A DNA stretch of 64,000 nucleotides from Lytechinus pictus (taxonomy: Eukaryota), in the NCBI RefSeq assembly GCF_037042905.1, contig NC_087252.1:3350001-3414000 (forward strand), in the 5' to 3' direction. The notes under the pieces were generated by a model. The model saw nothing but the letters and a program-made list of their open reading frames with translations, had not been told where the DNA came from and searched no databases. Made by a program: the position numbers and the translations under genes. Position 1 is the first letter of the stretch. Each line of letters starts with the position of its first letter. Shown here piece by piece: positions 4,286-49,180 of the stretch.

Positions 4286-5759
4286 TATATATAATGTTTT
4301 TATTGTCCAACTTAATGGAAATTCATTTTGTTTACATGCAAACATACAAATTACAAATATACATAATCAAGGAGAGACAAAATTAATACATAATACTGGC
4401 ATGCACGTAATACATTCGTTCTTATACATAAGACGATTAAAAGAGTATAACGAGATCATTGCTGAAATAAGAACAACAAGAAGGCATATTCGGTGTAATT
4501 ATCATCACCATCATTCTAAAACTGTTAAATGAGTAAAAGTATCAGGTCATTTTATTTTCTTTATTTATTTATAACTTGAAGCATAATTCACATATAAAAA
4601 ATCCACAACTCTACATTGACCATGATGTCGATACTATTATTAGTATTGCAATCATTATAGTTGCTGTTATTATTATTATTATCATTATTATCATTACTAT
4701 TATTACTATTACTACTACTATCATTACTCTTTACATTTGTGGCAGTTATTGTATTAAAGAGGAGACATAGATGGCAATATTGAAGGGTAAGTGTAATTCT
4801 GCAATAAGGTGACTTGTTTTCTATTTAATGGTTCAGAAGACGAATTGAGAAAGGAATAAAAGAATTTCCGTAACGGCTCGTTCTTGCCTTAACTGATTCC
4901 CACCTTCTTCCACTACGAAGTAGTTTGTATTTCTTATTTAATGGATGGGAGTGATCACTGACTATTGCTTGGGCTTTGTCAACTACCTTTCCTTAACATA
5001 TCCTATCCAAATCTACAACGCACTTCGTAATCCTACTAGCCCGTTTCACTACTCTACACAATTTATCCTTATCCTTCTGTCTTGCACTGTGATACCAGGC
5101 AACACAGTCATGGGTGATGATACTCTGAAATAACTGATGAATAAAACCAATACAATATTCTCTCGTTTACATGAAATTGTTTCATCTTCCGAAGGAAAAA
5201 CAATCTGTGGTTGCACTTGAGTGTGGTAGCTTTAGTCTGCTCGGGCCAATCAAGTTTGTCATCAACAATAGTGCCTAGATACTTATAACTATGGACAATT
5301 TCAATTGGATGACCATCGATGTGAATAGGGAATTCTACAGGATCACAAGATTTCTTCATCCTGAAGTCAAAGATGATTTCTTTAGTTTTGTTAGAATTCA
5401 ACACCAGATGGTTCTCAGTGCACCAACTACCAAAAGAGGATATGCTCTCCCTATATTCTAACTCACTCTCTTTTATCAGGCCTACAATGACAGTATCATC
5501 GGCATATTTCAAAATACGAACCGACGGAATATTGGAAATACAGTCATTAGTATATAATATATAGAGAACAGGTGAGAGAACACACCCCTGAGGAGACCCT
5601 GTGTTCGTTGTAAGTACGTTGGAGAGTACATCATTAACCTTAACCCTCTGGGTTCTACCATGTAAGAAGTCATAGATCCATAGAATCAGTGACGGTTTCA
5701 CATCCAAGAAACTTAATTTTTCTATTAGCTTATATGGCTGGATGGTAGTCTACAATTGT
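4286..5759 (-). mobile_element. 5'-truncated Rex1/Babar-like LINE (RT C-terminal half + 3' UTR) inserted into the L2/Crack element
   Basis: ORF 5108-5707 has WIYDFL, TGSPQGCVLSPVLYILYTNDC, KYADDT, YKYLG and RLFFLRK. A C-terminal FIPFSIRLLN lies near 4835-4865. Confidence 0.85.
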
Positions 5760-8090: not shown

Positions 8091-8484
8091 GTGTTCTGAT
8101 CTTATCAGATCTGAAACGGGGCAGTACTTGTACGTCACTTTGCTAACTGGTAGAGTGTATAGTGTTCTGCCACTTTAATAGGCCCACTTTATAAATTGCC
8201 AACTATAGTAACTCTGGCTTTGATTGTTCAACTTAAACCTTGGAAATTCATCCCACTCATATTTCTTCACCTATAGTCTTGCCTCTAATTCTACAGAACT
8301 AATGTGTTTGTTAAATCGTCAATAATTGTGGTATAATTTGCAAACTCACAAGCTTGTTTATAATGGGGGAGGACCGGTGGCTTACTTTGTGTGTTATTAT
8401 AGCTCCATCTGTTTTTTATCTTTTTTGTATTTTGCTGACTAGTAGGGCTCTAAGCCTGGCTACATGGATTTGGATTTGCCAACT

Positions 8485-9958
8485 GATTGTCTTTACTCTA
8501 TAAGTCGCAACCTTCTAATCAGTATATTTTTAGATCTATCAAAAGCTTTTGATTGTATTGATTTTAATATCTTATTACATAAATTGTATTTTTATGGAAT
8601 TAGAGGGACTCCATTGTTATTATCGAAAAGTTATTTATTAAATCGTAAGCGATATGTGAGCATGTGCAATAATTCATCAGCATATAGCAATATACAAATG
8701 GGTGTACCCCAGGGATCTAATCTAGGCCCATTATTATTTTTATTGTATATACATGACTTGCCAAGTGTTAGCAGTATTTTATCATTTATTTTCTTTGCTG
8801 ACGACACAACAATATTTTTATCTGGTAATGATCCTTTTAATGTGAATTTTATATTAAATACTGAAACAGCCAAAATTCAACGATGGTTTCTTGCCAATAA
8901 ACTTTTTATTAATTTCGAAAAAACAAATTATGTTATTTTTAAAACACACAATTAACATATTGATAACAGTGCAATACGAATAACAATTGCCAATAAAGCA
9001 ATAAAGCAGGTTAATCAAGTAAAATGCTTAGGAGTAATTCTTGATGAAAATATGACATGGAAATATCATATAGATTACATTTGTAAAAAGATTCTAAAGT
9101 AATTGGAGTATTGAACAGAGTAAAAAAAAAAATTACCATTACGCATCCTTGTAAATATATATAATACCTTGATCTTGCCAAATTTGAATTATTGTCTGAT
9201 TGTCTGGGGTGGCTATGCCTCATATTTATTCCAAAGGATATATGTGATTCAAAAACGTGCAATAAGGGTAATAACAAATTCATTTTTTTAGAGCTCATAC
9301 ACAGATTTTTTTTTTTTAGCTAAAAATTTTAAAGGTAAATGAACTTTATGAATCGCAAATTATTTAATATATGTACAAATATTTCAATTTAAATTCTACT
9401 TTTCCATCTTGTTTTAATACTTATTTTATATTTAATAGCCGTATAAATAATTATGTAACGAGAAATTTAAACAAATTATATATACCGTTCATTCGTTATA
9501 CGCTTTCTAAATCTACAATTCGTTATAAAGGACCAAACTTGTGGAATAATTTACCGGATACTCTAAAATTATTTGTTACATTCTCATCATTGAAACGTAG
9601 ATTGAAACAAAGGCAACTGTCTACTTATAGTTAATAATTCCAACTGCCTATCTAATGGGGGGGGGGGGGGCGATGTCAATATGTTCGTGTCTCTTTTGTT
9701 TGTTTGTTTGTTTTTGGCCACTATTCTATTTGTGTTTTTAATCGTATAATGTAGTAATCAAGGGAGTCGGCTTTGACAGGTCAATGGCCTTTCTGACTTC
9801 CTACATCCGCTACATTTTATTTTCATTTCTTTTATATTTCTACCATTTCTTTTTATTGCTTGTACTGTGATTTAAATTATTTTACTCCTTTGCTGTTGTA
9901 TACTGTACATATGTTTGTATGTTTATAAAGGATGTTAAATAAATGAATTGAATTGAAG
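8485..9958 (+). mobile_element. 5'-truncated L2/Crack/Daphne-type LINE (RT, C-terminus, 3' UTR)
   Basis: IFLDLSKAFD, KLYFYGIRG, GVPQGSNLGPLLFLLYIHDL, FADDT and C-terminal YKGPNLWNNLP, interrupted by stops and frameshifts. Ends aaataaatgaattgaattgaa. Confidence 0.88.
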
Positions 9959-10694
9959 TTAATACCCCTATTTTTCTTTCCTTTTTTTTCTTTCTTTCTT
10001 TCTCTCCCCCTCTCTCCTTCTTTCTTTTTTTTTTCTCTTCCTTTCTTTCCCTCTTTTTTTTCTCCCCTATCCTCCATTGTGCCAACTGGTACATGATTTT
10101 TCCGACTGCCATGAATGTGGGGGGGGGGGGTCACACCTCCCCATACCCCCCCCCCCCCCCACCCTATCTAGCTACGGCCCTGTATATAATGTATTCCGTT
10201 TTTACTTTATTATATGTTAAATACATTGACTTGCTATGATGTTGAGTTAATTGTTAAACTGCAGGGCACCTTTGGAAAGCAGTTTTGCATAACTGAACAG
10301 GCCTACCCTGTAGTATAAATAAAGAAAACCAATAAATGGTCAGTGCCAAGGGTGATTAAGTACAAAGAAGGAGGAAAAGATGCATCAGGTCCTCTGAAAA
10401 CCAGGCGCGATCAATCCGATACGAAGTAAACTTTACACTTCGTTTGCGATTTTTTTATTAATATCATAACTCTACCAAAATCTACGCTCATTGTAACAGT
10501 GAAAGTAATAGCATTCGAGTAAAATAAACTGTTGTTTATCACATTATCACTGAGGTGAAATGTGAGTATGATTTGCCCCTTTCAGACAATTTGCATAAGT
10601 CTGCATTGTCTGAAAATGATATTTTGGTGTACAAATAGTTTTAAGTTGTGTAAAAGCTTCTCTTTTAATTTACCAGTGATATTCAGCAGGCATT

Positions 10695-13600
10695 ATGGGT
10701 GAAACTCTTAAAGTGAAATTATATTCTTTGAATGTAAGAGGCCTCGGTGATAACCTAAAACGTCGATGTGTGTTTGACTGGCTAAGAAATACTGAATTCG
10801 AAATGTTTTTTCTTCAAGAAACCCATAGCACGATTGAATGTGAAAAAATTTGGTCCAATGAATGGGGATATAAAGTTTTCTTCTCTCATGGAAAATCCAA
10901 TAGTGCAGGGGTATGCATTTTGTTGAAACCTACTTCAGGTATTACTGTACACGCAGTACACAGAGATGAATATGGTCGTACTTTGCTTTTAAATGTATCG
11001 TATGGTAACTCAAAATTTACCGTGATTAATATATATGGGCCGAACAAAGATGAGATAGCAATGTTTGAAAATTTACATTCCATGATGCAACAGTTTGGTG
11101 AGGAACCTTTTATTATAGGTGGAGACATGAATACAGTTCAAGAACCCAACATGGATCGTTACCCTAACCATACCCAACATCACCCTCATTGTTTTAATCT
11201 TATGGAATTAATAAAAGAAGACATGGACTTGATAGATATATGGCGCCATATGAACCCTTGCAAATTTCAATTTACATGGCGTTCTATGTCTGCCCAAAGT
11301 AGAATTGATTATTTTCTTATCTCTAGTACGTTGAAAGTCTTTGTAGATTGTGCTGACATACATTATGGTTACAGAAGTGACCATTCAGCTATCAGCTTGT
11401 CCATCAAACGTTGGGTTCCAAAAAGGGGCCCAGGCTTTTGGAAGATGAATACTTCTTTATTATCAAACCCTTTTTATAAATCAGATCTGAAAAAAACTAT
11501 AAATTCAGTTATTGAGGAAAACAAAGATATGGAAGCTCATAAGCTTTGGGAATATTTAAAATATGAAATAAAAAAAAAATGTATTGTTATATCTTCCAAT
11601 CACAAAAAAAAATTAAAAACCAAATATGACTCCATACTCAAAGACATGGAAAACATTCAAGATGCTTTGGCGGATAACCCTGATGACTCTTTTATAAAAG
11701 AACAGCTATTATGTAAAGAAGCAGAGTTACATCGTATGCATGAGGAGCATGTAAGGGGAATAATGGTTCGCACTAGAGCTACGTGGATATCGGAGGGAGA
11801 AAAAAACTCCCGTTATTTTTTAAATTTAGAAAAAAGAAATTTTGATAAAAAACATATACAGAAGCTGAAGAAAGGTGAAATGATTATTACCAAACCCAAA
11901 GATATATTATCAGAAGAAATGAATTTTTATGAAACATTATACGGTTCGAATAATATAAAAGATAACGATATAAAAAATGTACTCAATAATCTGGATATAC
12001 CTACAATTGGACAAGATTTAGTCGGGTTATGTGAAGGTTGTATTTTAGAAAAAGAATGTTACGATGCAATCATGTCAATGGCTTGTGATAAAACACCTGG
12101 TACCGATGGTCTACCTGTTAATTTTTATAAGATGTTTTGGGAAGATATAAAAGAACCCATTTGCAAAGTATTTAATACTTGTTATACGTTAGGTGAACTT
12201 TGCCCATCTATGAAAAGAGGAATAATAACACTTTTACCAAAAAAGGACAAGGATAATCTTTATTTAAAAATTGGCGTCCAATCTCACTCCTAAATACCGA
12301 CTATAAAATTTTGGCTAAAATTATTGCTTCAAGACTTCAAAAAGTTCTACCATCTATTATCCATTGGGACCAAACTGGATTTTTAAAGAATAGATACATC
12401 GGTGAGAATATTCGTTTACTCTTAGACTCAATATACTTATGTAAAAAAATAGAAACTAATGGTATTGTCTTCTCAATAGATTTTGAGAAGGCTTTTGACA
12501 CGGTTGAATGGAATTTTATAGACATTTGTTTAAAAAAATTTGGTCTTGGTTGCACATTTAGATCTTTTGTTAAACTTATGTATACAAACATCGAGAGTTG
12601 CATTATAAATAATGGTTTTTCATCTAAAGTGTTTAATCTCCAAAGAGGGGTAAGGCAGGGCTGCCCCCTTAGCCCATATCTTTTTTTAATAGGGGCGGAG
12701 ATATTAGGTCTTATGTTGAGACAGAGTAAACAAATTCGGGGAATTCATCTTAATGGACATGAAATACGCGTAAGTCAGTATGCTGATGACACATTGATTT
12801 ATCTTGATGCCAATGAATGTAACCTTTTAAATTGTTTTGATATTTTAACAAAGTATTCTAATATTTCAGGACTTAAGATAAACGTTAACAAGAGTAAAAT
12901 TGTAAGGCTAGGTAATTTCAAAGGCACATTATGTAGACAGTTAAATGTAGAATGGGGTGATGAAATTTTTGATTACCTTGGGATAAAAGTTCCTATACGT
13001 GATTTATCAAGTATTTTTTCAATAAATTTTGATATTAAATTGAAAGAAATCCATAAACTTTTAAAAATTAGGAATTTTCGCAATTTGACACTTTTAGGTA
13101 AGATTACTATACTGAAATCCCTGGTACTTCCAAAATTTGTTTATCTATTCAGTAACTTACCTGATCCACCTCAAAGCTTTTTTGATAACCTTCAAAAAAT
13201 ATTCTTTGAATTTTTATGGAGTGGAAAGAGAGATCGAATTAAAAGAAATATAATGTATAATGAATATGAAAATGGTGGTTTAAAAATGACACATATAAAA
13301 AGTTTTGTAATGCGCTCAAAATTTCTTGGGTCAAAAGGATATTAGATAATCAGAATAAGGGTATGTGGAAACCGTTTTTTCTTCATCAAGTAAATTCAAA
13401 CGGAGGTGAATACATTTTTTACGGTAATTTATTTGCTAATGATGTAACATTTTTTCATGTCAGCCAATTTTGGCACGATGTATTGATATCCTGGTCTTCC
13501 TATAAATATTACAACCCGGTCAAATTTAAGGAGATTTTATCTCAACCCATTTGGAATAATTCATTAGTAAAAATAGATGGTAAATTGATATTTTTCAAAC

Positions 13601-14463
13601 ACTGGTTTGATAAAGGAATTAAGTCGATTGGGGATTGTCTTAATATAAATGGATGTTTCCGGTCTTTTGAAGAAATGCAGCTAATTTTTAATTTACATAT
13701 AAATCAATTTATGCGTTATTACGCTATTATTGATTCTATAAAGTCGACCTGGTCAAAAATGCTTACCCAACGCAACCCCACATTTTCTTCTGAAGACAGG
13801 AAACTTTCTTTATTTTTATCACAAAAGAAACCAACAAAATTTTGTTACTCTATATTTGTAAATAATGTATGTTTAAATTTGGAAAATACCAACCACTTAG
13901 ATAAATGGGAAAGTGACATAAATCTAAGTTTAAAAACACTAATTCAGTGGCAAGACCGTTTTAAAATATTATATAGGGCGACCTTGGATACCAAGATACG
14001 TTCATTCCAATTTAAGTTTATTCATAGACGTATAGCAACCAATTATTTTTTATTTCGCATTGGGGTAAAAAGTTCACCTACATGTAATTTTTGTAAATAC
14101 GAAACTCAAGATCTTATGCACCTGTTTTTTTTTTGTTGTCCAGTTGTTGAATTATTTTGGAATGAAGTGTACAAATGGTTAGTTAATTTAAACATTCTTA
14201 CTTTGCCTTTTTCAGATTTGGATATTTGTTTTGGAGTCAAAATGAAAAATAGTCTTATTAATACAATTATATTTTATGCAAAATTCTTTATTTATAAACA
14301 AAAATACAATGAGAAAATGTTAGTCTTTAAACACTTTGAAAATGAAATTATCTTTTTAGAAAAAGTAGAGCGAGCAATCGCAGTTAAACAAGGCAAACTT
14401 TTAGTTCACTTTGATAAATGGAATTCATTAAACAAGTATCAAGATGTTCTTGCTGAATTGTAA
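10695..14463 (+). mobile_element. Tx1/L1-clade non-LTR retrotransposon ORF2 (APE + RT + C-terminal zinc finger), full length with two 1-bp frameshifts; poly(A)-like tail to ~14600
   Basis: APE motifs: SLNVRGL, LQETH, NIYGPN, GGDMN, SRIDY, SDH. RT motifs: PGTDG, WRPISLLNTDYK, DFEKAFD, RGVRQGCPLSP, QYADD, YLG. Zinc finger: CNFC..HLFFFC. AATAAA at ~14540 followed by an A-rich tail. Confidence 0.95.
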
Positions 14464-21189: not shown

Positions 21190-21492
21190 TCATAAATATG
21201 TGGTGATCACCGAATCAAGACTTTCTGACGCAAATCCTCTTCGGGGAAATGTTGCAGGACATGATATCCACTTTTCTTGAACAATGGCATCTGAAGTTGA
21301 ACCCCATTTCAGTGATGAGGCGAATGCTGACGATGTCGGATGCAGAGAGGAGGAGTTACCAGGTTCACTGGCTTGATGATTGGATGGAATTATTGGTTTC
21401 ATCTCCATGTATTTGTGAGCATCATTGAAGAGTTGCTTAGCAACCACATCAATTGTGGAAACATTGGAATCTCCATCCACATCAGTTTCGTG
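21190..21492 (-). CDS. Orphan TM cassette, terminal cytoplasmic exon (YMEM motif, C-terminal TTYL)
   Basis: Acceptor cccaactgtag|CAC, phase 0. Open to a stop: HETDVDGDSN...AHKYMEMKP...SVITTYL*. Confidence 0.65.
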   Translation of the reverse strand, partial: HETDVDGDSNVSTIDVVAKQLFNDAHKYMEMKPIIPSNHQASEPGNSSSLHPTSSAFASSLKWGSTSDAIVQEKWISCPATFPRRGFASESLDSVITTYL

Positions 21493-21927
21493 CTACAGTT
21501 GGGAACAATTTATTAGATAAGAAAATTTACTGAGCAACACCTTTAAAAAGCTTTTACACATGACCTGGAATTCAGGATATAAATTATTTTATACCACAAC
21601 CAATATGCTCTTCCGATTAATAAAAAAATCAAGTTGTTATCATGGCTGTAGATAATTAATATGGGCATCTGCTGGCCCACTTATCTCAAATAGTTTTTAT
21701 TTATATCAACTTAATAACTATTAAAGGTGCACCATGTATATAAAATGTGATAAGGTAATACGATTTTGAATGGGGTCTATAGTATAGTACCTACATACCC
21801 TTACACTTTATAATTCACCGTAGAAAATTGGGCATAAGGATGATCAGCATATTTCTTTGTTTATCAACAATGCTTTTGTTTTCGTAAACAATGTCTCATG
21901 TGATGATATAGATATTTTTTCATTTAC

Positions 21928-22010
21928 CATTGTAAAATTTGCGTGAGGAGGTTCGTGGTTCGAGTCGTTCTGATGTATGGCGGTCATTGAAAGTCCATCT
22001 ACGTTCCTTG
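21928..22010 (-). CDS. Orphan TM cassette, juxtamembrane exon
   Basis: ctttatttag|CA...ATG|gtaaat, 83 nt, phase 1->0. Links the two flanking exons in frame (ARNVDGLSM...ANFTM). Confidence 0.65.
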
Positions 22011-22638
22011 CTAAATAAAGTGAAAGTGACAAAAAATCTTAGAAAATGAGGAGAGGTCACAGAAAAGAAAAACAGACACATTCGGAGTAAACTATATGTA
22101 CATTCTTTGATGACTGATTACTAAGTAATTACTTATTGCACACGGAGTATTCTTGAACGTGTTTTATGAACAAGACAAGTTTTGTTTCCTTCTGATCTGC
22201 CATTGCGATTTTTGTTAAAAGGCGCACTGAGGCTAGGTTCGAGTTGCCTTTCTTAAAATTTGATACAAGTCCAAACTGGCTCGTTTTTGGTCAGATTTAA
22301 CTCCCCCCCCCCCCCCCTCACAAAAAAACGAAAATGTCTTGAATATATATCCTTTCATCAGCTACATCAGCTAAATTAAATAAATGCAGCTGTAAACAAA
22401 ATTTCAATCACCACGATCATATTAAAAAGGGCTATTACAAAGTACCCCCTTTGGTCCTAGAAAACAAGCCTATTTTAGATATTTTCTTACGTATCGGATT
22501 TACGTCAATTCTATGCTCGTGCGTTATTTACTTTTTGGACGAGTTTCGATAATTCGATATCATGATTGATTGCCGAAACTTTAGGTATGGAAAGGATGTT
22601 ATTTTTTACTACCTTATTAGATTTTAAAAAGCACTCAC

Positions 22639-22761
22639 CTTTATTTGTGTCACGTTGTAACCACATACATACAGCCGATACTAAAATTAGAATCAGCACA
22701 GTTAGTGAACTTCCCACGATGTATAGAACTTTATGAAGCTTCGAAGGGAGAGCATTGCTGT
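22639..22761 (-). CDS. Orphan TM cassette, transmembrane exon
   Basis: gactatatag|AC...AAAG|gtgagt, 123 nt, phase 1-1. Encodes SNALPSKLHK-VLYIVGSSLTVLILILVSAVCMWL-QRDTNK. Confidence 0.7.
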
Positions 22762-22868
22762 CTATATAGTCAAATATAAAATTACACAATATTTCTTCTT
22801 ACAATTTACATTACCCAAACTGCAAGCGAACCAAGCCATACATACATATATATATATATACATACATT

Positions 22869-22899
<31 letters not shown>

Positions 22900-23446
22900 G
22901 TCTCGCTATGTTTATTTTTTTTTACAATCTAGATGATTTTCTGTACAAGGCAATGACAAAACATTAGTCAATGATCGATGCAAAATTTGGGGGTTATTTG
23001 TATGGAATGGTTTTATTTTGATTGCTGCATGCTTTATTCAAATGTATATATATACGAATTTGAACCTTCCTCCTATCTCATTGTGAATGAGATCAGTCCG
23101 ATATTAGAAATTTTCTCGACTGCCACCATTTTTGAAAGGGTATGGAGCATCGAAACAGGTAAAAGTTTTTGGAAACTTGGTGCGAATTCCACAGGCATAT
23201 TTAGATCTCCCAGGCTTCTTATTGTAACTTTTCTCTTCCTCTCTCTCTTGCACCATGAGCCTACCTCTCCTAACTTAATTAACAAATTGCCTCTCTCTGA
23301 GTCATTCAATTTTTCTATTCACTTTCTCGCAATTTTACCCAAATCTCATGTTTTCCTTATTCATCTATTAATTCTTCACAGTCCTCTCCCCATTTCTTCA
23401 TGAACAAATGTACATGATATCAACAACGATTATGATGATAATGATC

Positions 23447-23486
<40 letters not shown>

Positions 23487-23604
23487 TAATATAATGATAA
23501 TAATAACAAGTAATAATAATAATGATAATAAAATGATATCAATAAAAATAATAAAAACAAAAGTATCAATGAATGGAGAGTTTGTTAGTAACACCATGTA
23601 GGTT

Positions 23605-23660
23605 AGTCATGAAAAGACGTTTCGATCACATAAGCTTTGATCTTCGTCAGAAGTGAAGAC
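23605..23660 (-). ncRNA. Minimal hammerhead-ribozyme-like motif (Penelope-type), probably degenerate
   Basis: Reverse complement CTGACGA-AGATCA-AAGCTTATG-TGATC-GAAA-CGTC gives the CUGANGA core, a paired stem II and GAAAC-GUC. Stem I pairing is poor. Confidence 0.45.
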
Positions 23661-23783
23661 TTGAGTGTGTGTGTGTGTGTGTTTGTATTTGAGTTTTGTC
23701 AGGCGTGCAGCAACTATATACATATGGGACCGAGCTTTAACGTCACCATCCGAAAGACGTCATAATGATAATAATAACCACTA

Positions 23784-26700
23784 CATAGGCGGATCCACGG
23801 AGTTGAGGGGCCCTGGCCCCCTATTGGTGGATCAAAAAAAGAAAAAAAAAAGAAAAAAAAAAAGGATGAAAAGAGAGGAGAAAAAGAAGAGGAGGAAGAC
23901 GATGAGAGGAAAACTTTGAAAAACAAATATTTTTGGTCACTTTATAAGGGCTTCGCTCGCGCTTCGCATTAGCATTGCCTGATTTACACATCTTGTTCAA
24001 TATGGAGCTTAAATATCAAGTTTGGAAATCAATATACAAAATATATTTCACCTTGGAAATCGAACTTTAATTATATGGTGTAAGTTACAAATTTATTTTA
24101 AAAAAGTGCTCTGCAAGAGTGTAAATTTATGGTCTGAATATTAACATATTCCGCTCGCGCTGAGCGCTCGCAAACTTTATTTATCAAGTACCTATTATTT
24201 TCGTGCATTCCATAAAGTTTTCAAAATAGCATTTTTCAGGTCTCATTTTCAAAACGTGTCAGCTAGCACTCCACGCTCGCATTTTGATTGGCGAGTTATG
24301 TAAGTCTCAGTATTGATTATCCAACAAACTACTTGAAATCTCCTTTTCATGACACTTGTTATATATAAGAAGAATTGTAAAAGCAATTACATTTATCTAT
24401 TTATTTATTTTCTCTTTAAGGATATCCATATCCTAGAATGATAACGACAATTCCAGCACGTGTTTGTAAAAGCTATCGTTATGCAGGCCTTTCGCCTATT
24501 TAAAGGCCAAGGATTTTTATTTTTTGAATAGGGTGAGGCAGACAATAGAGCTCCCAGTAGTAGTGAAAAGAACAATAGACTTAGCTATGTTGTTGACATG
24601 TTGATTTCAATGAGGTCATTCAAATATGTTTTAGAATTTAGACTGATCTAGAAATGGGCAGAATGTTCTTTTTATAGTGAATACTAGAAGTTTCTAGAAT
24701 AATGAATAATTTGTATACAAGGAAGGATTTCATCACATCAGATCATCATACCAGATCCTAACTCAGAGTTTCACGCCAGACTTTATGTCAGAGCAGAGTT
24801 TAATTCCACCTGGAATATTTATCTTCTGTGGAATTATTTGCACACCATCAATGAACTGTTTGCAGTTATTTTGAGAGAGGAATTATCAGTTCTCATCGAG
24901 ATCATCAACCTGTTTAAATGAACGCTTTTCAACCCATGGATTGCTAAAATTGACTTTTAATCATCATCAACAACGTCTTCATGGATATTCCAACTCATTA
25001 CAGTGACTCTGGTTAATCATCGTGCTTCAACATCAGTTTCATCATCGCCATCATTGTGAACTTTGATTTACGGAATCTTCGCCAACCAACTTGGATTATT
25101 ACTTGAATATACATGTAGTACCATCACTTTCGATCGCACATCTGTCACTTCAAGAGATGTACACGTAAGAACAATATTTATTTATGTTTGTTACTTTATA
25201 ATTGTTAATGATTTCCTGTAATAAAAGAAAAGGAAATAAAAATAAAAAAATAAATATTTATTGTTATTTGTTGCAGTATCGTAACACACTTTATCAAAAA
25301 TTTTGGCTCTCGATTTGCGTTCGCATTAGTGTTTAAAAATATATTAACTGATGCATCATATTGATAATTACAAAAGTGCTTGAAATTTCCAGTTTTCAGG
25401 CCATAATAATATCATCAGATTCCGCGCCTCATTATGCATTAATAAATAAGACATCAATATAATAATTAAATTGTCCGTTTAGTTTCATCTTGCGCTTAGC
25501 AAGCGAAATAGAAAGATAGACATCATTTTCACATGATGACATGTCTTAAGTATGTCCAGGTCCTATGTCAAAGCTCAAGGTAACAATAATGAAAAATATC
25601 AGCTCTTTACTAACTGCGAACCATCCACCTCGCAATTCTACCACAAAGTGCTCGAAATATAGAGCTGAAATTGACCCTGTTTCAAATCGGAATATCAGAT
25701 ATTTTAAGCTTGCGCTCGCTTTGATTTCCATGATAAAATATGTATTTAGACTGCCTAGATTCTAGGTCTAAATCTGTAACACGCGCGTGCGTTGTTATTC
25801 AGATACGCAACTTGTTCTTTATTCAAATCATTATCCAGTTTCAGATTACAATTCAAAAAAATTCTGCTCGCGCTTTCTGCTCGCATTATCAATCTAGGTA
25901 GATCCCCTTTTACTCATCCTTTTCATGATTTACAAAACATGAATAGAGTATCCCGCTTTTAGATCTAAATCTATAATTTTCCGCTCGCGCTTTGCGCTAG
26001 CATCAATTGTTTAGTTACATAGCTATCCTGTTCACGATTACAAAAATTGATTACAATTTTCATTCTTTATGTAGAAATGTCAAAAAATTCAACTCGCACT
26101 TTGAGCTCGCATTATTGGATTGTTGAAGCAGTCCTTAACAGGTACATTTTTGATCAGTTAAAAACGTATATAAAACATTTCTGCTCGTGTTTTGCACTCG
26201 CATTATTAATGTAAGGAAGATCCACAATTAAAAACATGAATGGAGTGTCGTTCAGCAGGTCTAAATCTCGAGATTTTCCGCTCATTCGTTGCGTTCGCAT
26301 CAATTGCTTAGTTATAGTTTCTTTAAGTTACAAAAAGTGCTTAGAATTTCTATTCTTAAGGTAAACATGTAGAAAAAAAAATTAAGCTCGCACCTTGCGC
26401 TTGCATTATTTGAGTGTTGAGATCTGTAAAGTCTTTATGGCTCACTGCAAGCGGTCTTGAACAGGTAGGCCTACCTTTCCGATCAGTTAAAAACATGTAT
26501 CAAATATTTCTGCTCGCACTTCGCGATCGTAGAAATTATTTTGTTGCATACATTGCCTAAATAACCAACATTGCCCTGAGTGTTCAAATTGTAGGAGAAA
26601 ATACATAAAATTTCAACAACAACAAAAGAATGCTCGCGCTTCGCGCTCGCACTATATAAATAAGGATTACGATATTATGTTGATTTATAAGAATAAAGCT

Positions 26701-26832
26701 AAGGAGTGGCTATTAGGACTAACCCCTCAAAGAAGCGAACAAAAATCAACTTCGAGCGACCGATCGGTAAAAATATAGCTGAAAAAATCCAGGTCCCCCC
26801 CCCCCCATTGGTGATGGCTGGATCAGCCCCTG
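23784..26832. mobile_element. ~2.1-kb non-autonomous DNA element (CA..GCGGATCC termini) carrying a nested solo LTR
   Basis: Left cataggcggatcc and right-end reverse complement caggggctgatcc. Many gctcgcgcttcgcgctcgca internal motifs. Flanked by cacta on both sides. Confidence 0.7.
24357..25286 (+). mobile_element. Solo LTR (Gypsy-like) with 4-bp TSD CACT
   Basis: TGTTA...TAACA ends, with cact at 24353-24356 and 25287-25290. A diverged homologous copy lies at 48173-49041. Confidence 0.85.
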
Positions 26833-27249
26833 CACTATAAGAATACATTTTACAATTACAATAACGATATTAACTCACAATATCTAGTTTTGAAATAGGC
26901 TTTATTGTGCTTCTTCGCGGCCTGAACAGTGACGTAATACTGTGTCAGGGGGTTTTGATATACATATATATAATATATTTCGGTTTTTTTTTTTTCTGCG
27001 AAAGTTATTGGGATAGTGGCACTAAAATTATTCAGTACTCAATTGATGGAGACCTGCAGCTCTTGACTATGTTGTGATTTCTTTAATTCTACTAAGTTTA
27101 TGTATCAGGAATACAAATGGAAAATTGCGCCAAATAAGCATAAAGTAAAGCATGGCAAAACATCAAAGGCTGTAGGTTAAAGCCTACAGGAAAATTCATG
27201 ATATTTATATGTAATAAAAGTGAAGAAATCAAATGTGTAAATGGAATTC

Positions 27250-27900
27250 TCATAGATCTAGATCTATATCTTTATTGGCTTTATCGTATCCGTCACATCC
27301 ACAAAAAGTCTAATCCAGCTTTCTGTGTACAGAGCTATGAAATCACGACGCTTCTGAAATCACTATAAAGCTTGACAATACGAATTGGGGAACATATTGT
27401 TGTGTTGGGGTCGGTGCTTATAATTAAGAAGGGAAGCGTAACGAAGAAACTTTGGAGAAAGTTATACGGTTCAAATTTACGATGAATATAAAATAATTTA
27501 GAAGTATAAAGATTGAGATTGTGAAGTACAGATAATATTTGATGGACGTCTAAGTCTTGAAGTCAGTCAGTCTATATCGATGAGTGTGGGTCTAGTATTC
27601 TCCTGTATATATTGTGTATCTCTCTAAGAATCAAAGTCTTATTTATATCATTAGTTTTGGGGGTGTAACAATTTAAGGTGGGAGCGATCTAAACTTGTTC
27701 TGATTGGTCTGGTGTGGTGATGCTCTGTGAAAGTAACTGGGGCTGGAAGTGTGAGTCATACTTCTTAGAACTTAAGTTCCTTGAAGTTAGCTAACGTCAC
27801 TGAGAGTTGGTATTTTTATGGTCAAGGCCTGGGAGTTAAATGGTATGGGGGTTGGGGATTTTTAGATGACATTGGGGGGAGTTTGTAAACAAGGTTAATG
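27250..27900 (-). mobile_element. Possible highly decayed I/Nimb-group LINE RNase H fragment
   Basis: Fragmentary reverse-strand peptides (LYTSKLF, IVKLYSDFRSV) fall in RNase H motif order. Many disruptions. Confidence 0.25.
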
Positions 27901-28055
27901 ACTGAAAGGATAACAGGAAGTTGAATACATACTACATAACAATATGCCAAAATCATCCGCAGAGCAGCTCTTGAACTATACTATATGCGATGGATACGCA
28001 CCCCCCCCCCTTGCATGGTGTAGGTCATCCCATTTTGCAAAGATTGGTCCTGTCC

Positions 28056-28249
28056 CAGTTGCGAACCTAGGATTTTCCACCCACAGGGGGAGGGGGGGGG
28101 GAGCAAAGTCGTCCGCCCAAAATTTTGACAAGCAAAAAAAAAGGTCTTCAAGCTCGTCAGGGGGGGGGGGGGGCAGGGATACGTCCTTTGCATGGGTTGT
28201 GACTCGTCAGGGGGGGGGGGCAGACTGCTCCCCTGTAGGTACGCTAGTG
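28056..28249. mobile_element. MITE with 8-bp TSD (hAT-like)
   Basis: cagttgcgaacc ... ggtacgctagtg, flanked by tcctgtcc / tcctgccc. Confidence 0.65.
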
Positions 28250-29772
28250 TCCTGCCCTAAAAACTGCCAGAAGAAAAATTACTGGCTGTCTGCGACTAAC
28301 AAGAATATAATTATCAAAACCTACTGTGTGGTATTTCCCCTCCACACATTAAAAGAGAGGTGTCAGCACAAAGTGAAAAAGAAAATCAAGCAGGAAGATA
28401 ACCCGGCAGTGATCTGGCAGAAAAACTCTCCTATGGACCAAGCGAATAACTCCCCCCAAGTTGAAGTGAAGAATGACCAACCTGCCAGCTGCCTGTTTGA
28501 TATTTTTTTTCCCAATAAACCATACCAATCCAATCCAGTCTTGGGCTTTAAGAAACGATAGTTAATGCAATAAACGGAAGACATCAGACACTAAAGGAAA
28601 AGACAATTACACAGCCTTGGCTGAAGTGCATTATGTTTATTATGGCTGTCACTTGCCGCATCGTGTTAATGAATATTTGCAGTGTTTACATGTATATTTC
28701 CAAATTTAGGAAAAGGATACAGCTCTGTTTTGCAGTTGAAAAGCAGTTACAATACATTAACATAATTTCATGATCACTCACACTGCATTTGAAGGAACAT
28801 TGACTTCTTCTCTGAGATCTAACTGATCTTCTTTGAGATCTACGTGAATTCCATATACATTATCACAATTTATTTACATCATTACACAAATTGAGGTTCA
28901 CAAACATTTAAATCAGACAAAATTACATTTCTTGTATACGCCTACGATCCACAGCATATCTTGAACTACATTCCATCTGTAATTACTTTGCCTGCCTAGG
29001 CCAATACTACAAGCACACGAATGAAACCCCACCCGGTGCTTAACGGAAATAAAGATTGTGTTCAAAATGTTTTTGCTCGAAAAGTAGCGATTTTGCCAGT
29101 TTCGTATTTTCCCGGCCGTGGCTTACGCAGCCCTAAACGTACTATGTATGGACACATTTTGCATATTCTGTCGTACAGCCGTTAGGAGTAGTTGAGGTGG
29201 AACGACGTCACAAAAGAGAATATAAAGTGCAACATATTTTCGTCAAAGATGGGACACAGCACATTGATTTTTTTATGATCAGCGAGATATACATGATGAG
29301 CTTTGGACTAATTTTGCATCATTATTCAAAGTATCTGGAATATAATGCAGAACTATCAACACATCGTACAATTTAAGGGGGGCATGGAGAATAAATGATG
29401 CATACATTTACATGATTAGGAGTATTTCAAAGAGTTTTGGGTGTCTGTTTGTGTTACTGCCCCCCTTCTCTCGCTACTGATCTAAACCTAAAATATAGTT
29501 GCAAAACTGCATTCCAATTCGATTGCCCTGTCGAATAGTAATTGAAACTAAATGCATACATTGAAACAATGAACTGAATTGATTGATCACCAATACTGAT
29601 TATGAATAAAAACGTCTGGACTAATTAATTACCCGGGTGACTGCAGTTACACTTAGGTATGTAGTAAGCATGGCCGGTAATTCTGATTTAAAAATGGCCA
29701 CTCAATAGTACGCACTGTTTCAAACTGATTCTACAATACGTGGCCGAGCCAAATCAGTTAAAGGGGAGTGAC

Positions 29773-29945
29773 CTGGGGATCGTTTCATGAAAGTTTTCAG
29801 CAATGACAAGTTGGCTTTCTCCGACAGTTACCATAGTAACGGTCAGAGGTATGTGCCTCACAGCCAATCAAAACCAAGGATTTCACTGAAATTGCCAGCA
29901 CCGACAATTTAGTCAGTGCTGACAACTTTCATGAAACACCCCCAG
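29773..29945. mobile_element. Palindromic MITE (Harbinger-like)
   Basis: ctggggatcgtttcatgaaagtt ... aactttcatgaaacacccccag are inverted repeats. Confidence 0.65.
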
Positions 29946-30405
29946 AAGTAATATTCGCTTTAATAAAACATGGAAACAAAAGTTCTGCTTTGATATAATG
30001 TTAATGCATTTTAAGACATAAGATTTTTTTTTGTGGATTTTGTGTGAAACCTCTTTCATGTCTTTTGAGCATACAGGCCAATATATACATCATATCACAT
30101 AGCACTCCATTTGATTCAGTTATACACAAGTGCTCGAGATTTAATTGAACTTCATTTATTGTACATTGTCAACAGGTCAATTCATGTTGGTATGGGTTCG
30201 CGTGCGCGGGCGTGTGTGTGGGTGGGTGTGAAAGTGCATGTATACATTAATTAGCTATTCTACGGGTCTTCATCGTTTTAAATTTAGATCAAGTGTGGCT
30301 ATTGCTCCCTTATCTATGATGATTTTCAATCAATAAAATTCCCCCAAACTTTTTCGTCGGTATTCAGATTTACACAATGACATTTCTTCCTCCAGAATCC
30401 TTAGA

Positions 30406-30477
30406 TTATCGCCTCTTGTGATTTCTTTTTTTCGATTTATCAACCACTGCGTACTCGGCTTCCACATCATGATGAAT
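30406..30477 (-). CDS. IgSF receptor terminal exon
   Basis: ttttcttctag|ATT; IHHDVEAEYAVVDKSKKRNHKRR*. Candidate AATAAA at 30155-30160 on the minus strand. Confidence 0.78.
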   Translation of the reverse strand: MHHDVEAEYAVVDKSKKRNHKRR

Positions 30478-33400
30478 CTAGAAGAAAACATATAGAAAGT
30501 TTCGATAACAAATATTCTTTCAAGATAAACATGACACTGAAAATATATGAATTCTTTTATTGAAATATAGTTATTCGTGAAATTTGAAACATTATGTCCA
30601 CTTACACCTTTAGGCAACACCTAGAGAAATTAGACATTATGGGTCACGATATGTATTTGAGATGTCAATAATTTGATGCATGGTTCAATACATATAAAAT
30701 GATCCGAACATATATTATGCAGCTTATATAAAGATGAGGAGTGATAACGAAATCTTTGGGGATTTAATGCATGCAACATTTTATGATAATAACCGGTAAA
30801 ATATTAGGAATTCAACAAATGAATTCAACATACAAATCACCTAATAACAAGACAACAAATATTTTTCTGAAAAAAAAAATCACGCACAGGTTCAACCATT
30901 ATAATTTGCATATAAAAATTGTTAGGCATATCTGTCGTTCTTGTAAAACAATGCAAATTATCAAAATGCTCTAATATGATGAAACTTTAAAGGTCTGCCC
31001 AAAGTAGTTTGTAGTTTTCTGCGAATCAAATTATCATTGATCTTATGTGAGAATTACACGGTATAAAAATGAATATATTTATACATCATTCTCGCTTCCA
31101 AAGTTACAATAGCTTGCAATCTTGTGAACTCCATGTCATCTGTACCATATTGCAAAAAAGAACCATTGTTGCTGAGTAAAGTGAAAGCAAAGTAATCTGC
31201 TTTTGTTTATAAGTACTTTGCATGGAATGGGCGTTTGTTCTCATTATAGGTTCGATGAGTCCTATTCAGTGATGATCTATTAGGCCATCAATGGTATAAT
31301 GGGTGGATGATTATATCATGTATGTTGTTTGTGTCTCAATGAGAGTTTATGCCCTGCACACTTTAACAGAAACAAAGAAGAATACTATCAAAACGTTTTG
31401 TTATTGATCTGAGTTTTGCCTTCAACATATTTAGATCACAGCTAAACAATTAAAAATGCCATTAACTTGTTGAAGATAAATTTTCCATACTATTTTAGAA
31501 AATGACAGTTGAAGTTATATATTTGTAATTTTATAGTAAACAAGGGCCGCGGAACTGGGAGGGAAGTCCCCAAATATTAAGTGTCGATGTACAGAAACCT
31601 GAAAATTCCAATCAAATTGTGATTGTACGCATGTTCAACTTCCCACCACACTCAAACACACACCCACCCTCACACTGAAATACACAAACACAATTTTAAT
31701 CTTGTTCCGCCGCCACTGATAAAAGCAACGCAAGAAAGTATGGAAATAAGTAATGCTACCTTTTCGATTTCTGCGTGTGAAACCAACGACTGTGCTTTCT
31801 TCTCGTTTCCTGGTTTACTAACTACAGCATACTCAGCCTCAATAGATAGATAAATAAAACAATGATAATATTTCGTATTTCTTTCATATTATACACAAGG
31901 AAACAAAAGTCCATGCTTGCACCCCATGATCTAATACTGGCAGCTTTTGGGTGCAATATTACACCTCAAAGAGCATATTTATTATTTTTACAGTGCCGAG
32001 AAATGCCTATTTTAGCACGTTTCATCTTCGTTTAAAATGCATGGTGTAAAATTACTGCTACGATGTACATATCTGCTCATATCAAGATTGGAATGCTGCA
32101 GATAGCTCTCTTTATTATGTACAAAAGGCTTCTTAGTGTGCAGAGTTCCCATATAAGCTTCCAAGGCTGCATTCGAAGAACGTGGTGAAAAATACAAATT
32201 TTTTAGCATCGTATGAAGAAAGACAAAGTTAACTTACACGATGTAAACCTAAAGTCATAACCCTCCTATTTCATATACATTCAACATGAATGTATCATAA
32301 CGAGCACATTTGTAAAGCTATTTTTTTCTTCAGTTTAGTAACCGTGGCTAATGGAATAAAAAAAAAGAATTTTAATTTACCAGGCCCGTGTGTGATTCCC
32401 GATAAACATGCGGTACGGTTGAACTGACTGTCAGAGAAGATGGATTAAGTAGGTCATAATCTGAGTCGTCATATTCTTCTTCAGTTCGCTGTAGAGAAAT
32501 AAAAAAAATAACATCATTATCAGCCTTTATTATGAATTTTACTCTACTCAGTACATTCGATAATTTAGATGGTTTAACGGACGTAAACTCAAGCTTGGTT
32601 TAACAAAAGAAATTACGTCCATATTTTTTTTAGAAAATTGTATGTACGGTACCATGAAATGAGCCTTCGATCCATTATGATCAACAATCGAAATGAATAT
32701 CTATTCCCAACATTGATTTGCATCACCTTCTTGGCGGGATGCCTTGAATCTTTCTCCTTTTTGTCGATATTCTGTCGACTGACCTGAGCATATTCCGCCT
32801 GTAATAACGACACAATGAAATAGTATAGACTAATAATGATGATAATATAATAATAATAGTCAGATGTTGTACAGCGCATAACACATCATGAATAACGTCT
32901 CTATGCGCTTCCAAAGGACTTGGATATTATTACCCTGGTTGTAGCTCAAGCAGCTTTTACGCGCTCGGCATTTCAGAGAATAAATTCCTGGCAGGTACCT
33001 ATTCACCTCACCTCGGTTGAGTGCAGCACAATGTGGATTAATTTCTTGCTGAAGGAAACTACGCCGTGGTTGGGATTCGAACCCACGACCCTCTGTTTCA
33101 AAGTCAGAAGACTAATCCGCTGGGCCACAACGCTCAGCATCTACAGTTTACGTCTTAATGCCAATGGAAATTAATTCATGAAAATTGGGCATTTTAATGT
33201 ATACTTTACACGTGGAATTTCACTAGAATTAGAAAAGCTTTTTTTCAAAATCAACCGAAATCAACAAGAAATGATGTCAATGCATTGAATCCAATGCGTC
33301 ATATTACCGGGTTTAAAGTTCATACATCAATTAACTTCTAACAACAGGGATCACTAAAAAAATTAAACAAAAATTATGTCATATTTACCAAACCACTAGC

Positions 33401-36400
33401 TGTTTCTCTGTAAACATGAGGAACAGCCCAAGAGAATCCATGGTTTAACAAGTCGTAATCTAGTCCAGTATCTGGATCCTATATCAGAAACAAACAAATG
33501 CTATCATTATTTACGACTTAATTAACGTAAATAATCCCCTAATTGTTGTATAGTACTGTTCAGGTGAACCATGACCTTACAAACTGGAAGTGAAAGTACC
33601 AACCACAGGTTCCAAGGGCCTAATTATATACAACTGGAGGGCTAGAGATATTCGTTCGATCCAACCGGCCATTCGATTTTTTTTTTCAATTTGATATTGC
33701 TGATTGACAAAAGTGTATGAATTTAATTGAAAATCTAACACTTATTCCAGAAATGGTAACTACTGAACTTCCTTTGCAAGATATGGGAAGATATATCAAT
33801 GACTTTGGAACTCTTTTCTGACTGGAGGAAGAAAATAGGGTTATTTTACTGTTTCAGTTGATAAATTTGATCCCATAACAGTATCTTCATAAATGGCGAT
33901 TTATTTTTAAAATGATCTACCCTTCTCTGGTCAGATATGGAATGTCAGATATTTATCCTATCCAATGGTAGTATACATTCGACCCTCTAATTTCACGTTT
34001 ATTTTTTATGAATTTTTCAAAAGTGCCTTTTTAATACACAAGTCTACCATGTCTATGGAGAATGTTTGACACCTAGTATAGGTCCCATGAGCCTAATTAC
34101 AACAGGAAGGCTAGAGATATTCGTTCGACCCAACCCATTCGATTTTTTTTCAATTTGATATTGCTGATTGACAAAAGTGGTGGAATACAATTGAAAATCT
34201 AACACTATTTCCAGAAATAGAAACTACTAAACTTCCTTTGCCCGAATTGGGAAGATATATCAATGACTTTGGGGAATGTTTTCAACTCCCGAGGCCCGTT
34301 TCATATTAAGAGGTACAACTGTTGTAACTTTGCCATTATAGCAACTGCCACGGTAACAACGATTTTGATTGGCTGCTGAGCCCTGATGCCATGGCAATTG
34401 CCATAATGACAAAGTTACAACAGTCGTAACCCTTTATAAAACGAGCCCCAGATATCTAATCAAAGCACGATTGTATTTTCCTTTAGCATGTTTTATATCT
34501 CTAAAATGACACCGCCTCCTATGTACTTTTATTTACAAGGTTTTGTTAAGAATAACAAATACTATATCATAGAATGTGATGAAAATTCATCTAGCAACTA
34601 TTTGTTAAATCATGTTAAGATATCATTAGCACATCGTGTGTCGAGTTGAACACATCGACATCTCGAGAGGTAATGGAGGAATATCACGTTATTTAAACAG
34701 GACATCACACATTAGAACTGTAAAACTATATCTTGTGAATTACCAAAGAAGAATGAATGTAAGGTGGATTTTTTTAACTTTCGTAGCTGTCAATTCATTA
34801 CAGATTATGATGGATCGTTTTCTCAATGGCTTACGCTCATCCTCTCTTGTCATTAAAACGAATAAGCCTATTTCCCCTGGGGTTTCGTTATATTTTATGA
34901 CATATTATGACTTTGAAAATTAATGTACACCACTATACAATCTTTAGTTATCATAAAATTGTGTTATTGTCGTTGTAGTTCTCATTGACTGATTTGCACT
35001 CAATTGCTGTTTATATTTGATCTGTATTTTTATCTGAATTTATTTGTGATGGAAATGAATTTCTAGAATAATGAATTTCTTGAATTTAATGAATCTTGAC
35101 ATCTATATAAGTAGTGGTTTTATAAGTTAAATGCATTTTTTCCCCCATCCCCAGTATAAAGCACACATTCAACATAGTGTGCTTAGAAATAACTGTAGTG
35201 AGCGCCTTATAAATGTTATGTATCATTACTATTATTATTATTATTGTCTCTATCACTATAATTATCTTAAATCAAAGTAGCCACAAACCCTTCTGTTCTG
35301 GCTTCCGCCTCCTCCCCCCAAACCTCTGACATCTTCCGATACTGGCACCAAGGGCCGCGTTGGAATATCAGGTGGGAGAGAAGGAACTGGTCTGTGTCGC
35401 CCAGTGGTTGTTAATGGTCGATCGGGTAATGTACGGTTGTCAACTGGCGTCAGGGGCAATGAACCTCGATTTCGTCGTGGTGTCGACTCTGGGGCATTTG
35501 CCGCGGATTCAGCTTTTTCAAAACGTCTGACTACGGAAAGACAGACGTGATTGCAAAAGATTAACGCAAATATGAATATTTACATGATTAGTACTTGAGA
35601 TATTTGATAGGTATACCATGTATACATGACTGCGTTATAGGTCCTTAACAATACTGTGTACCGGAGCGCATGCAATAATATCAAAATAAACATACATGTT
35701 ATATAGTCCTATAAATGTAAAGTAAAAGTATTAAAGAATAACTTGCTTGAGGAATGTTTTTAGTTAACATGTTTACAGCTTCAAATGTATTTGTTCACGT
35801 TTTACTAAGTCTTAATACGAAGAGCTTAATTCCAAAAGGAGCTAAATCCACCTTTGACCAACAATGATTTTTTTTTAGACAAGTATATGTATCTTAGTGG
35901 TGCGAATCAAATGCAGCATATCACATTTGAAAATAAAAATGGAAAGGTTGGTTAAAATTGATTACAAATTGAGTTTTGTTCCAAAAGGAGCTAAATCCAC
36001 TAAACGGTTATTTCAAATTTGTTATTTTTCCTATTTTACATAAAGTTATGCATTCAATTTTCAGGTAAATGTTTTGGAAACAAGTTTACACCATCAGTGC
36101 AAAGTTAGCTGAAAATAACAGAATTTTACCATTTTTTAAAAATATTTTTAGACTTAGGTCCTTTTGGAATTAGATATCGAAAAGTTGCCGTCCTTAGAAG
36201 AGATGACAAAATATTATGTTTTTTTTTTTTTTGTAATTTTCAACAGATAAACATCAGAAAAGATGTGAAATGTATTTTGCTAGCCATATTATGTGTTTTT
36301 TGTGTTCAATTTCCAATATCAAACATGTTTGAATTGGCAAAAATTGAAATTTTACTAATTATAAAGATCAAAAATTAGATTAAAAATCAATAATGAAAGT

Positions 36401-48172: not shown

Positions 48173-49180
48173 TGTTGCGATACTGCAACAAATAACAATC
48201 AAAAATTAAGATTTAAAATTTAAACTTGGTTTCCTTTTTTTATTACAGGAAATAAATCATGTAATTAAACAAAATAAAACCAAACAATGATCTTACATCA
48301 ATCTCTTGAGGTGACAGATGTGAAATATATCTGAGTAATAATCCAAGTTGTTTGGCGAAGATTCCGTAAATTAAAGTTCACAATGATGGCGATGATGAAA
48401 CTGATGTTGAAGTACGATGAATAAGATGAGTCACTGTAACGAGTTGAAATGTCCTTGAAGACGATGTTGATGGTGATAAACAGTCAATTTCAGCAATCCA
48501 TGGGTTGAAAAGCGTTCATTAAACAGGTTGATGATCTCGATGTGAACTGAGAATTCCTCTCTCAAAATAACTGCAAACAGTTCATTGACGGCGGGTAAAT
48601 AATTCCACAGAAGATGAATATTCCAGGTAGAAATAAAGTCTGCTCTGACATAAAGTCTGGCATGAAACTCTGAGTTCTGCTCTGATATGATGATGTCCTT
48701 GAAGAAACTGCAGCTTATATATACAAATTTCATCTATTCTAGAAGCTTCTAGTATTCACTCTTCTGGAAGCTTCTGGTATTGTCTTTAAAAAGAACATTC
48801 TGCCCATTTCAAGAGTAGTCTACATTTAAAACACTCTTGAATGACCTCATTGAAAACAACAATGTCAACAAAATAGCTTTTCCTATTGTCCATTTCCACT
48901 ACCAAAACAAGTCTATTATAAAGCAATCTCTATTCAGAAATAACAAAGAGTACTCAAAGTTCTATGTTATAAATATCCTTAAAGAGGAAATAACTAAATA
49001 AATGAATGTAATTGCTTTTACAATTATTCTTATATATAACACCTCCCCCACCGGGGAAAAGAAAACTTTACTGTAGTAAAGGTTTCTTTAAGATTACTTC
49101 TTGTTCTTAAACTTTTCAAAGTCATCTTGATAAATCATTTACAATATTGTGTACAGAGGTATAGTACTTACAAACATATG
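48173..49180 (-). mobile_element. 3' LTR (48173-49041) with adjacent polypurine tract and a short internal remnant
   Basis: Reverse-complement homolog of 24357-25286. ggtgggggagg lies immediately 5' of TGTTATAT on the minus strand. Confidence 0.8.

Follow-up and report, generated by a model that had tools for sequence, protein, structure and literature searches.

An orphan transmembrane and YxxM-tail exon set downstream of an ITIM receptor gene in a paired-receptor-like cluster of the sea urchin Lytechinus pictus

Can one receptor gene end in either of two opposing cytoplasmic tails? A stretch of the Lytechinus pictus genome raises this question: a gene for an immunoglobulin (Ig) receptor with an ITIM tail is followed by exons for a transmembrane (TM) helix and a YxxM tail that form a splice-compatible set without 5′ exons of its own, the layout of an alternative tail. 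We analysed a window of 64,000 nucleotides (C8:3350001-3414000; coordinates below are those of the window unless a contig is named) within a region that was mapped exon by exon (C8 3.030-3.434 Mb; 404 kb, no N).

The orphan exons lie on the minus strand. A TM exon of 123 nt (22761-22639, phase 1-1), bounded by ...gactatatag on the acceptor side and AAG/gtgagt on the donor side, is followed by a linker exon of 83 nt (22010-21928, phase 1-0) and by the tail, a last exon of 303 nt including TGA (21492-21190) that encodes 100 amino acids with YMEM and a C-terminal VITTYL. Joined in frame, with entry phases 1, 1 and 0 and AG/GT ends, they give 168 codons, which bears out the first-pass annotation of three in-frame exons encoding a TM helix and a tail of about 135 residues with YMEM inside and TTYL at its end (VITTYL-stop). 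The helix is hydrophobic (best 19-residue Kyte-Doolittle mean 2.54) and has no charged core residue. The open frame, the five splice sites and the YMEM and VITTYL motifs are all intact. Because the tail exon has eight further homologues in the genome (E 1e-14 to 5e-28), the orphan exons are more than a chance arrangement.

The ITIM receptor exons, also on the minus strand, match isoforms X1-X5 of L. pictus RefSeq LOC135154845 at 100%. They encode a signal peptide (46716-46764), a V-set-like Ig domain (IgV; 45682-45969), a second Ig domain (Ig2; 44166-44531), optional stalks A (43461-43541) and B (41978-42034), both skipped in X4 and X5, a TM helix of a type that we call TM1 (39946-40044, starting at 40044 in phase 1) and a tail of six cytoplasmic exons spanning 30406-35530 (35530-35289, 33478-33389, 32798-32727, 32488-32381, 31837-31760 and 30477-30406). 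The tail contains two strict ITIMs, LDYDLL and SDYDLL, which fit [ILVS]xYxx[ILV] at the motif level, together with three AEYxxV and two RxxPxxP motifs. Its relatives are P0011 of L. variegatus (69%) and P0012 of Strongylocentrotus (54%), and one strict ITIM and the three AEYxxV motifs are retained in both. No second ITIM tail was found in this genome, where the ITIM tail is single-copy, and all five RefSeq isoforms carry it.

The ITIM tail was built by internal duplication of an exon pair, a YDLL..VPHVY exon plus an AEY exon, which occurs twice (33389-33478 with 32381-32488, and 32727-32798 with 31760-31837), and the duplication is also present in Strongylocentrotus. The V domain of isoforms X2, X3 and X5 is cut short by 23 residues at its end, its conserved Tyr and Cys among them, through use of an internal donor in 45682-45969. 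Another L. pictus ITIM tail, P0013 (LOC129267366), is absent from this genome; over 87 shared columns it is 87% identical to the L. variegatus tail versus 62% to that of the window, a pattern in the alignment that suggests either deep allelic lineages common to both species or presence/absence paralogs.

The first-pass annotation had drawn its case for splicing from the shared phase of the two TM exons. The observation itself holds: the exons at 22761 and 40044 both start in phase 1, and joins from 41978 and 44166, both of them donors used by RefSeq isoforms, would each create Asp at the junction. The match says nothing about splicing, however: phase 1-1 is common to every Ig, stalk and TM exon of this family that was examined.

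The orphan belongs to a family. Nine copies of the tail exon, the orphan included, lie on the minus strand of C8 between 3.054 and 3.371 Mb, in a cluster of about 350 kb that reads, in the direction of transcription, ITIM gene, orphan, p1 (type A), p2 (A), p3 (B), p4 (A), p5 (a chimera), p6 (broken), p7 (A) and p8 (B). Altogether it holds eight complete two-Ig ectodomains, nine YxxM tails and one ITIM tail. Seven of the eight other YxxM units have their own IgV, Ig2, stalk and TM exons upstream of the tail, and signal-peptide exons were found for all of these complete paralogs except p7 (6/7). Type A units combine a divergent ectodomain with TM2, the orphan's TM type, and homologues of the orphan TM exon are found in p1, p2, p4, p5 and p7. 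In type B units (RefSeq P0004 and P0005) Ig2 and stalk resemble those of the ITIM gene, and the TM1 homologues of p3 and p8 are spliced directly to the linker and YxxM tail. Across 12 tails, three of them from L. variegatus, YMEM is present in every one and VITTYL in 11.

Units of the cluster exchange ectodomains, TM exons and tails. In the chimera p5, the signal peptide and IgV of the ITIM gene are joined to TM2 and a YxxM tail; the two loci are 96% identical in nucleotides over 1.3 kb (window 44752-46082), and their IgV domains are 91% identical with a dS of 0.02. Ig2 is 70-82% identical to that of the ITIM gene in p3, p5 and p8. Breakage is common as well. Unit p6 has no TM or IgV: half an Ig2 exon runs directly into the linker intron, and linker and tail are still open; the tail of p2 carries a frameshift.

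The TM2 exons of p1, p2, p4, p5 and p7 end in a weak donor, gtgatt, and read-through gives a short-tailed form (compare L. variegatus P0014). The same five paralogs have a GxxxG in the helix that is lost from the orphan. At a second locus of this Ig family, C8:38094000-38110500, there are one Ig2 exon, four IgV-like exons, of which one contains a stop, and, near 38094517, a TM-like exon of a different kind.

We examined the interval between orphan and ITIM gene (22761-30400) with nucleotide profiles built from the paralogs. The profiles recover known exons elsewhere in the cluster, and in this interval they detect no signal-peptide, IgV, Ig2 or stalk exon of either type, the best hit being a signal peptide at E 2.1; the earlier statement that the interval contains neither an Ig nor a signal-peptide exon is thus confirmed by profile search. 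A loose scan for signal peptides returned one start site, at 22863, within a TA repeat. Only 7.6 kb separate the ITIM-gene stop from the orphan, and AATAAA signals follow that stop at 30160, 28874 and 28641. Intron homology to the paralogs is firm for only about 90 nt above the orphan TM acceptor. A (TAT)n tract at 23420-23574 has a counterpart at about the same place in the stalk-TM intron of TM2-type paralogs and is possibly the limit of retained intron. Searched with a profile of the 456 nt that separate tract from acceptor, the window gave no match, and on the 3′ side non-coding homology is also patchy.

The interval contains an old, complete non-coding DNA transposon (23784-26832) with an intact 5-bp target duplication, in which an insert of about 930 bp with TG...CA ends (24357-25286) is nested with a 4-bp duplication of its own. 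The transposon is about 12% diverged from the majority of 11 full-length copies (12 copies were fetched, one was dropped with its ends unfound, and 40 of 7598 candidates were scored). With both target duplications intact and paralog introns matching neither of its flanks, it was rejected as cause and clock of a deletion. Nor does its age date a loss of the ectodomain, because a clean insertion could predate that loss. A second, inverted copy of the nested insert (24560-25286), 79% identical, lies at 48173-48902, about 1.4-2 kb upstream of the ITIM-gene start codon.

How old is the orphan? The seven unshifted paralog tails show 74-89% identity to one another, and that of the orphan shows 61-68% identity to them. 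Measured over TM2, linker and tail, the orphan stands at a dS of 0.34-0.38 (95% range 0.24-0.53) from the four TM2-bearing paralogs without a frameshift, and dS between the ITIM-gene Ig2 and four type-A Ig2 exons is 1.5-1.7, with lower bounds of 0.94 or more. With dS of 1.5-1.7 against about 0.35, the split between the inhibitory gene and type A long predates the orphan's exit from the TM2 lineage. These values rule out that ITIM gene and orphan duplicated together to found the type-A genes, and the orphan is therefore most simply an early activating-type unit minus its 5′ half. The first-pass annotation had offered a decayed paralog as one option; a paralog origin is indeed the best supported, the orphan being part of a nine-copy tail family and dating to the paralog radiation, but with frame, splice sites and motifs intact it is not decayed.

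Some details would fit a less simple history, in which an old gene with two TM-tail cassettes may have given rise to the p5 lineage. The p5 and ITIM-gene Ig2 exons differ by a dS of 0.33, the same depth as the split of the orphan exons. The orphan linker groups with type-B linkers (split support 99/97) and is 76-80% identical in nucleotides to the linkers of TM1-type paralogs, versus 67-72% for those of TM2-type paralogs. A one-to-one orthology with P0010 of L. variegatus is only suggestive: support is 94/93 with 12 rows and under 80 without the frameshifted p2, placement of P0010 with type B is not rejected (p-AU 0.31), and the pair has seven exclusive shared residues against two or fewer for other rows.

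We then asked how the orphan exons have been maintained. Their pattern of change indicates that they evolved as coding sequence. The four internal indels relative to the paralogs (+9, -6, -12 and -27) are all multiples of 3, as against 20% of indels in a neutral transposon; of these four, only the two tail deletions are traceable to the branch of the orphan itself. Two of 35 otherwise invariant tail columns are changed in the orphan versus about seven expected (p 0.016). The dN/dS ratio, 0.70-0.77 against 0.65-0.88 for paralog pairs, is not significantly below 1 (Fisher p 0.11). When neutral decay was simulated with indels, 34-51% of runs kept both frame and splice sites at 0.01 substitutions per site, 4-14% did so at 0.03 and fewer than 4% at 0.05; the corresponding values without indels were 75%, 42% and 24%. 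Decay being this fast, the loss of the ectodomain must be very recent unless selection still acts on the exons. Recent breakage that leaves an intact tail does occur in this cluster, as in p6.

Database records bear on the question to a limited extent. None of the five RefSeq isoforms of the ITIM gene includes the orphan exons, though they do capture lesser variants, stalk skipping among them. This absence is weak evidence, because the five TM2-type paralogs yielded no full-length protein either. An exact copy of the orphan tail was not found among database proteins, a search that speaks only against near-exact copies, because it also missed P0004 and P0005 among longer proteins. On these records, the ITIM gene may or may not use the orphan as a second tail.

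Four explanations were weighed, graded by judgement and not by computed values. We judge it probable, if not strongly so, that the orphan is the surviving 3′ half of an activating-type cluster member, a paralog that has lost its head, because seven of the eight other tails have ectodomains, dS is near 0.35, breakage is common, none of the five isoforms contains the exons and poly(A)-type signals follow the ITIM gene. The unit adjoining the ITIM gene would once have been a full receptor, under coding constraint through most of its past; its promoter and its signal-peptide, Ig and stalk exons would then have gone in a recent deletion or unequal crossover, leaving an intact and probably unused remnant, and the activating job would fall to the hard-wired paralogs. 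It counts against a lost head that the missing exons have left no trace and that the gap is only 7.6 kb, that intactness demands a very recent loss and that the orphan TM donor, gtgagt, is nearer the consensus than the gtgatt of its TM2 paralogs. The preservation of frame, five splice sites, YMEM and VITTYL would be natural if the exons instead form a working alternative 3′ cassette of the ITIM gene, a reading we consider possible but hold tentatively, in which the same ectodomain would exchange its ITIM tail for a PI3K/PDZ tail. By an equally tentative route, transcription would run past the first poly(A) site and a stalk or Ig2 donor would be joined to 22761, or the TM1 exon to 22010; such a cassette would probably have been captured long ago from a decapitated paralog and kept by selection. 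Both predicted isoforms exist as hard-wired genes, the first as p5 (ITIM-type ectodomain, TM2 and YxxM) and the second as p3 and p8 (TM1, orphan-like linker and YxxM). The uniformly in-frame indels, the scarcity of changes in invariant columns (2/35 versus about 7 expected), the departure of the p5 Ig2 from the ITIM gene at the depth of the cassette split (dS 0.33) and the precedents of Alr1.3/1.4 and Draper-I/II also favour it. These signs of selection fit a full gene with a recently lost head equally well, however; dN/dS is not significantly below 1, the phase match is uninformative, the RefSeq count is 0/5, and horse CEACAM41 illustrates that intact activating exons can go unused (PMC5856374). 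In a bolder scheme, which strikes us as rather unlikely, the head gene itself would carry two opposite TM-tail cassettes, ITIM/SH2-phosphatase and YxxM/PI3K, switched by alternative 3′ splicing; it would have seeded the cluster through duplicates that each deleted one cassette (p3 and p8 keeping TM1, the p5 lineage TM2), and the head region would persist as two deep lineages across Lytechinus species.

The two remaining explanations carry far less weight. DAP10 has a YxxM PI3K tail, and DAP10-like adaptors carry an acidic residue in the TM helix. The first-pass annotation had suggested a linked activating partner; in its DAP10-like form this finds no support, as the orphan helix contains no acidic residue and no signal-peptide exon is present. 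More broadly, a small stand-alone YxxM/PDZ adaptor or cytosolic protein, started from its own promoter in the gap in DAP10-like fashion or from an internal Met, is improbable. Three L. variegatus RefSeq models, P0008-P0010 (130-134 aa), do consist of linker and tail only, starting at a Met in the linker, but the L. variegatus models look fragmentary: one more of them, P0014, holds just Ig2, stalk and TM2 and reads through its donor. We regard as the most doubtful of the four an assembly error, in which collapse of a repeat-rich cluster lost the ectodomain exons. Tandem clusters are hard to assemble and the L. pictus ITIM tail P0013 is missing from this genome; on the other hand, the 404-kb region contains no N, the orphan is 30% diverged from all paralogs and hence not a copy prone to collapse, and the gap transposon is whole with both target duplications present.

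What would such a cluster do? A putative immune role is read from its architecture alone. Upon ligand binding and tyrosine phosphorylation, SH2 phosphatases would be drawn to the motifs of the ITIM tail (for ITIMs and what they bind, see bioRxiv 10.1101/2022.03.04.482883). The YMEM tails would by the same reasoning recruit PI3K p85, YxxM being a PI3K-binding site (PMC11599192). A match to the p85 iSH2 domain above the Pfam cut-off lies on C11 of this genome. YxxM need not activate, as CTLA-4 carries YVKM. C-terminal sequences of the T-x-L type are class I PDZ ligands, and the terminal T-Y-L would act as one. The YxxM units contain neither an ITAM nor a charged TM core residue.

Linked genes with similar ectodomains and, at the motif level, an ITIM-bearing inhibitory member place the cluster close to known paired receptors. 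The Siglec-5/Siglec-14 pair likewise consists of adjoining Ig-receptor genes, one inhibitory with an ITIM and one an activating partner, with ectodomains homogenised by conversion (compare p5 and the ITIM gene) and with fusion and deletion alleles (PMC4042635). Ectodomain sharing of the ITIM gene with p5, p3 and p8 follows this pattern. The likeness is one of arrangement and not of demonstrated sequence kinship; the urchin activating units carry their own YxxM tail, and one inhibitory unit faces eight or nine activating ones, unlike the Siglec-5/14 pair. The Hydractinia Alr complex is likewise a tandem array in an invertebrate: its Ig receptors have unusual V-set domains and either ITIM or activating tails, it shows pseudogenes and exon shuffling, and Alr1 and Alr6 can be spliced to different sets of TM and tail exons, as in the Alr1.3/1.4 isoforms (bioRxiv 10.1101/2022.03.04.482883). 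As that source describes them, however, the activating tails of Alr receptors are ITAMs, an Fn3-like fold occurs in most Alr proteins and the alternative isoforms are RNA-supported, whereas the putative urchin two-tail form is seen in exons alone.

Given the Alr1 and Draper precedents, a two-tail receptor would not be new in kind even if true. Draper is an EMI/EGF receptor, not an Ig receptor. In Drosophila, alternative splicing gives its single ectodomain an activating or an ITIM tail, the Draper-II ITIM replacing the Draper-I ITAM, which makes it the working model for an alternative cassette (PMC4503800). It differs in using an ITAM, not YxxM, and the available part of PMC4503800 describes no tandem paralog array. 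CD28 and ICOS share the YxxM PI3K motif, and urchin YMEM resembles YMNM of CD28 (PMC11599192); the urchin receptors differ in having two Ig domains, and that source found no convincing CD28/CTLA4/ICOS homolog in sea urchin.

The paired-receptor-like locus, with ITIM set against YxxM and with ectodomain exchange, is real, and it is a firmer result than the two-tail reading. It is apparently undescribed in an echinoderm: we found no published account of this cluster in the open literature (listings and abstract openings). In a different sea-urchin immune cluster, duplications and deletions linked to repeats have been reported (PMC8634487), and PMC11999971 gave no further information on echinoderms. 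The locus has the look of a separate, echinoderm counterpart to the paired receptors of vertebrates, in which an inhibitory receptor tail conserved to Strongylocentrotus stands beside an unstable YxxM-tailed array that borrows its ectodomain. PI3K-type tails in place of ITAM adaptors would differ from the KIR, Siglec and Alr solutions, and the genes are named candidates for the balance of inhibition and activation in sea-urchin immune cells. Should the orphan be spliced in, a single locus would display the splicing and duplication routes to paired signalling together with the intermediate step; otherwise the exons are ordinary debris of a fast-turnover cluster.

The Ig domains are themselves unusual. 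Against the Pfam V-set model P0007 scores 26.2 bits (cut-off 26), and the isolated exon falls just below at 25.3. In none of the ten aligned V-like domains is there a Cys two residues after the invariant Tyr, so that the F-strand YxC cysteine is absent, and in all ten an invariant Cys lies 13 residues further on, near the G strand. A PDB sequence search with P0006 returned no match, an Ig2 profile searched against PDB sequences gave weak matches to CRTAM (E 0.002) and Siglec-8 (E 0.002), and a single-sequence fold of the ectodomain gave an unusable model (pLDDT 38.7). Diversity among the IgV exons, with dS reaching saturation, far exceeds that among the TM and tail exons, as expected for a recognition domain.

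The window also carries mobile elements. A near-complete non-LTR retrotransposon ORF2 on the plus strand (10680-14460) encodes endonuclease, RT and zf-RVT in three frames, and further RT fragments lie at 8446-8952 (plus) and 5111-5749 (minus). A THAP-domain ORF (54197-54733, plus) and a 438-aa integrase-core (rva_4) ORF (59275-60588, plus) are probably transposon-derived.
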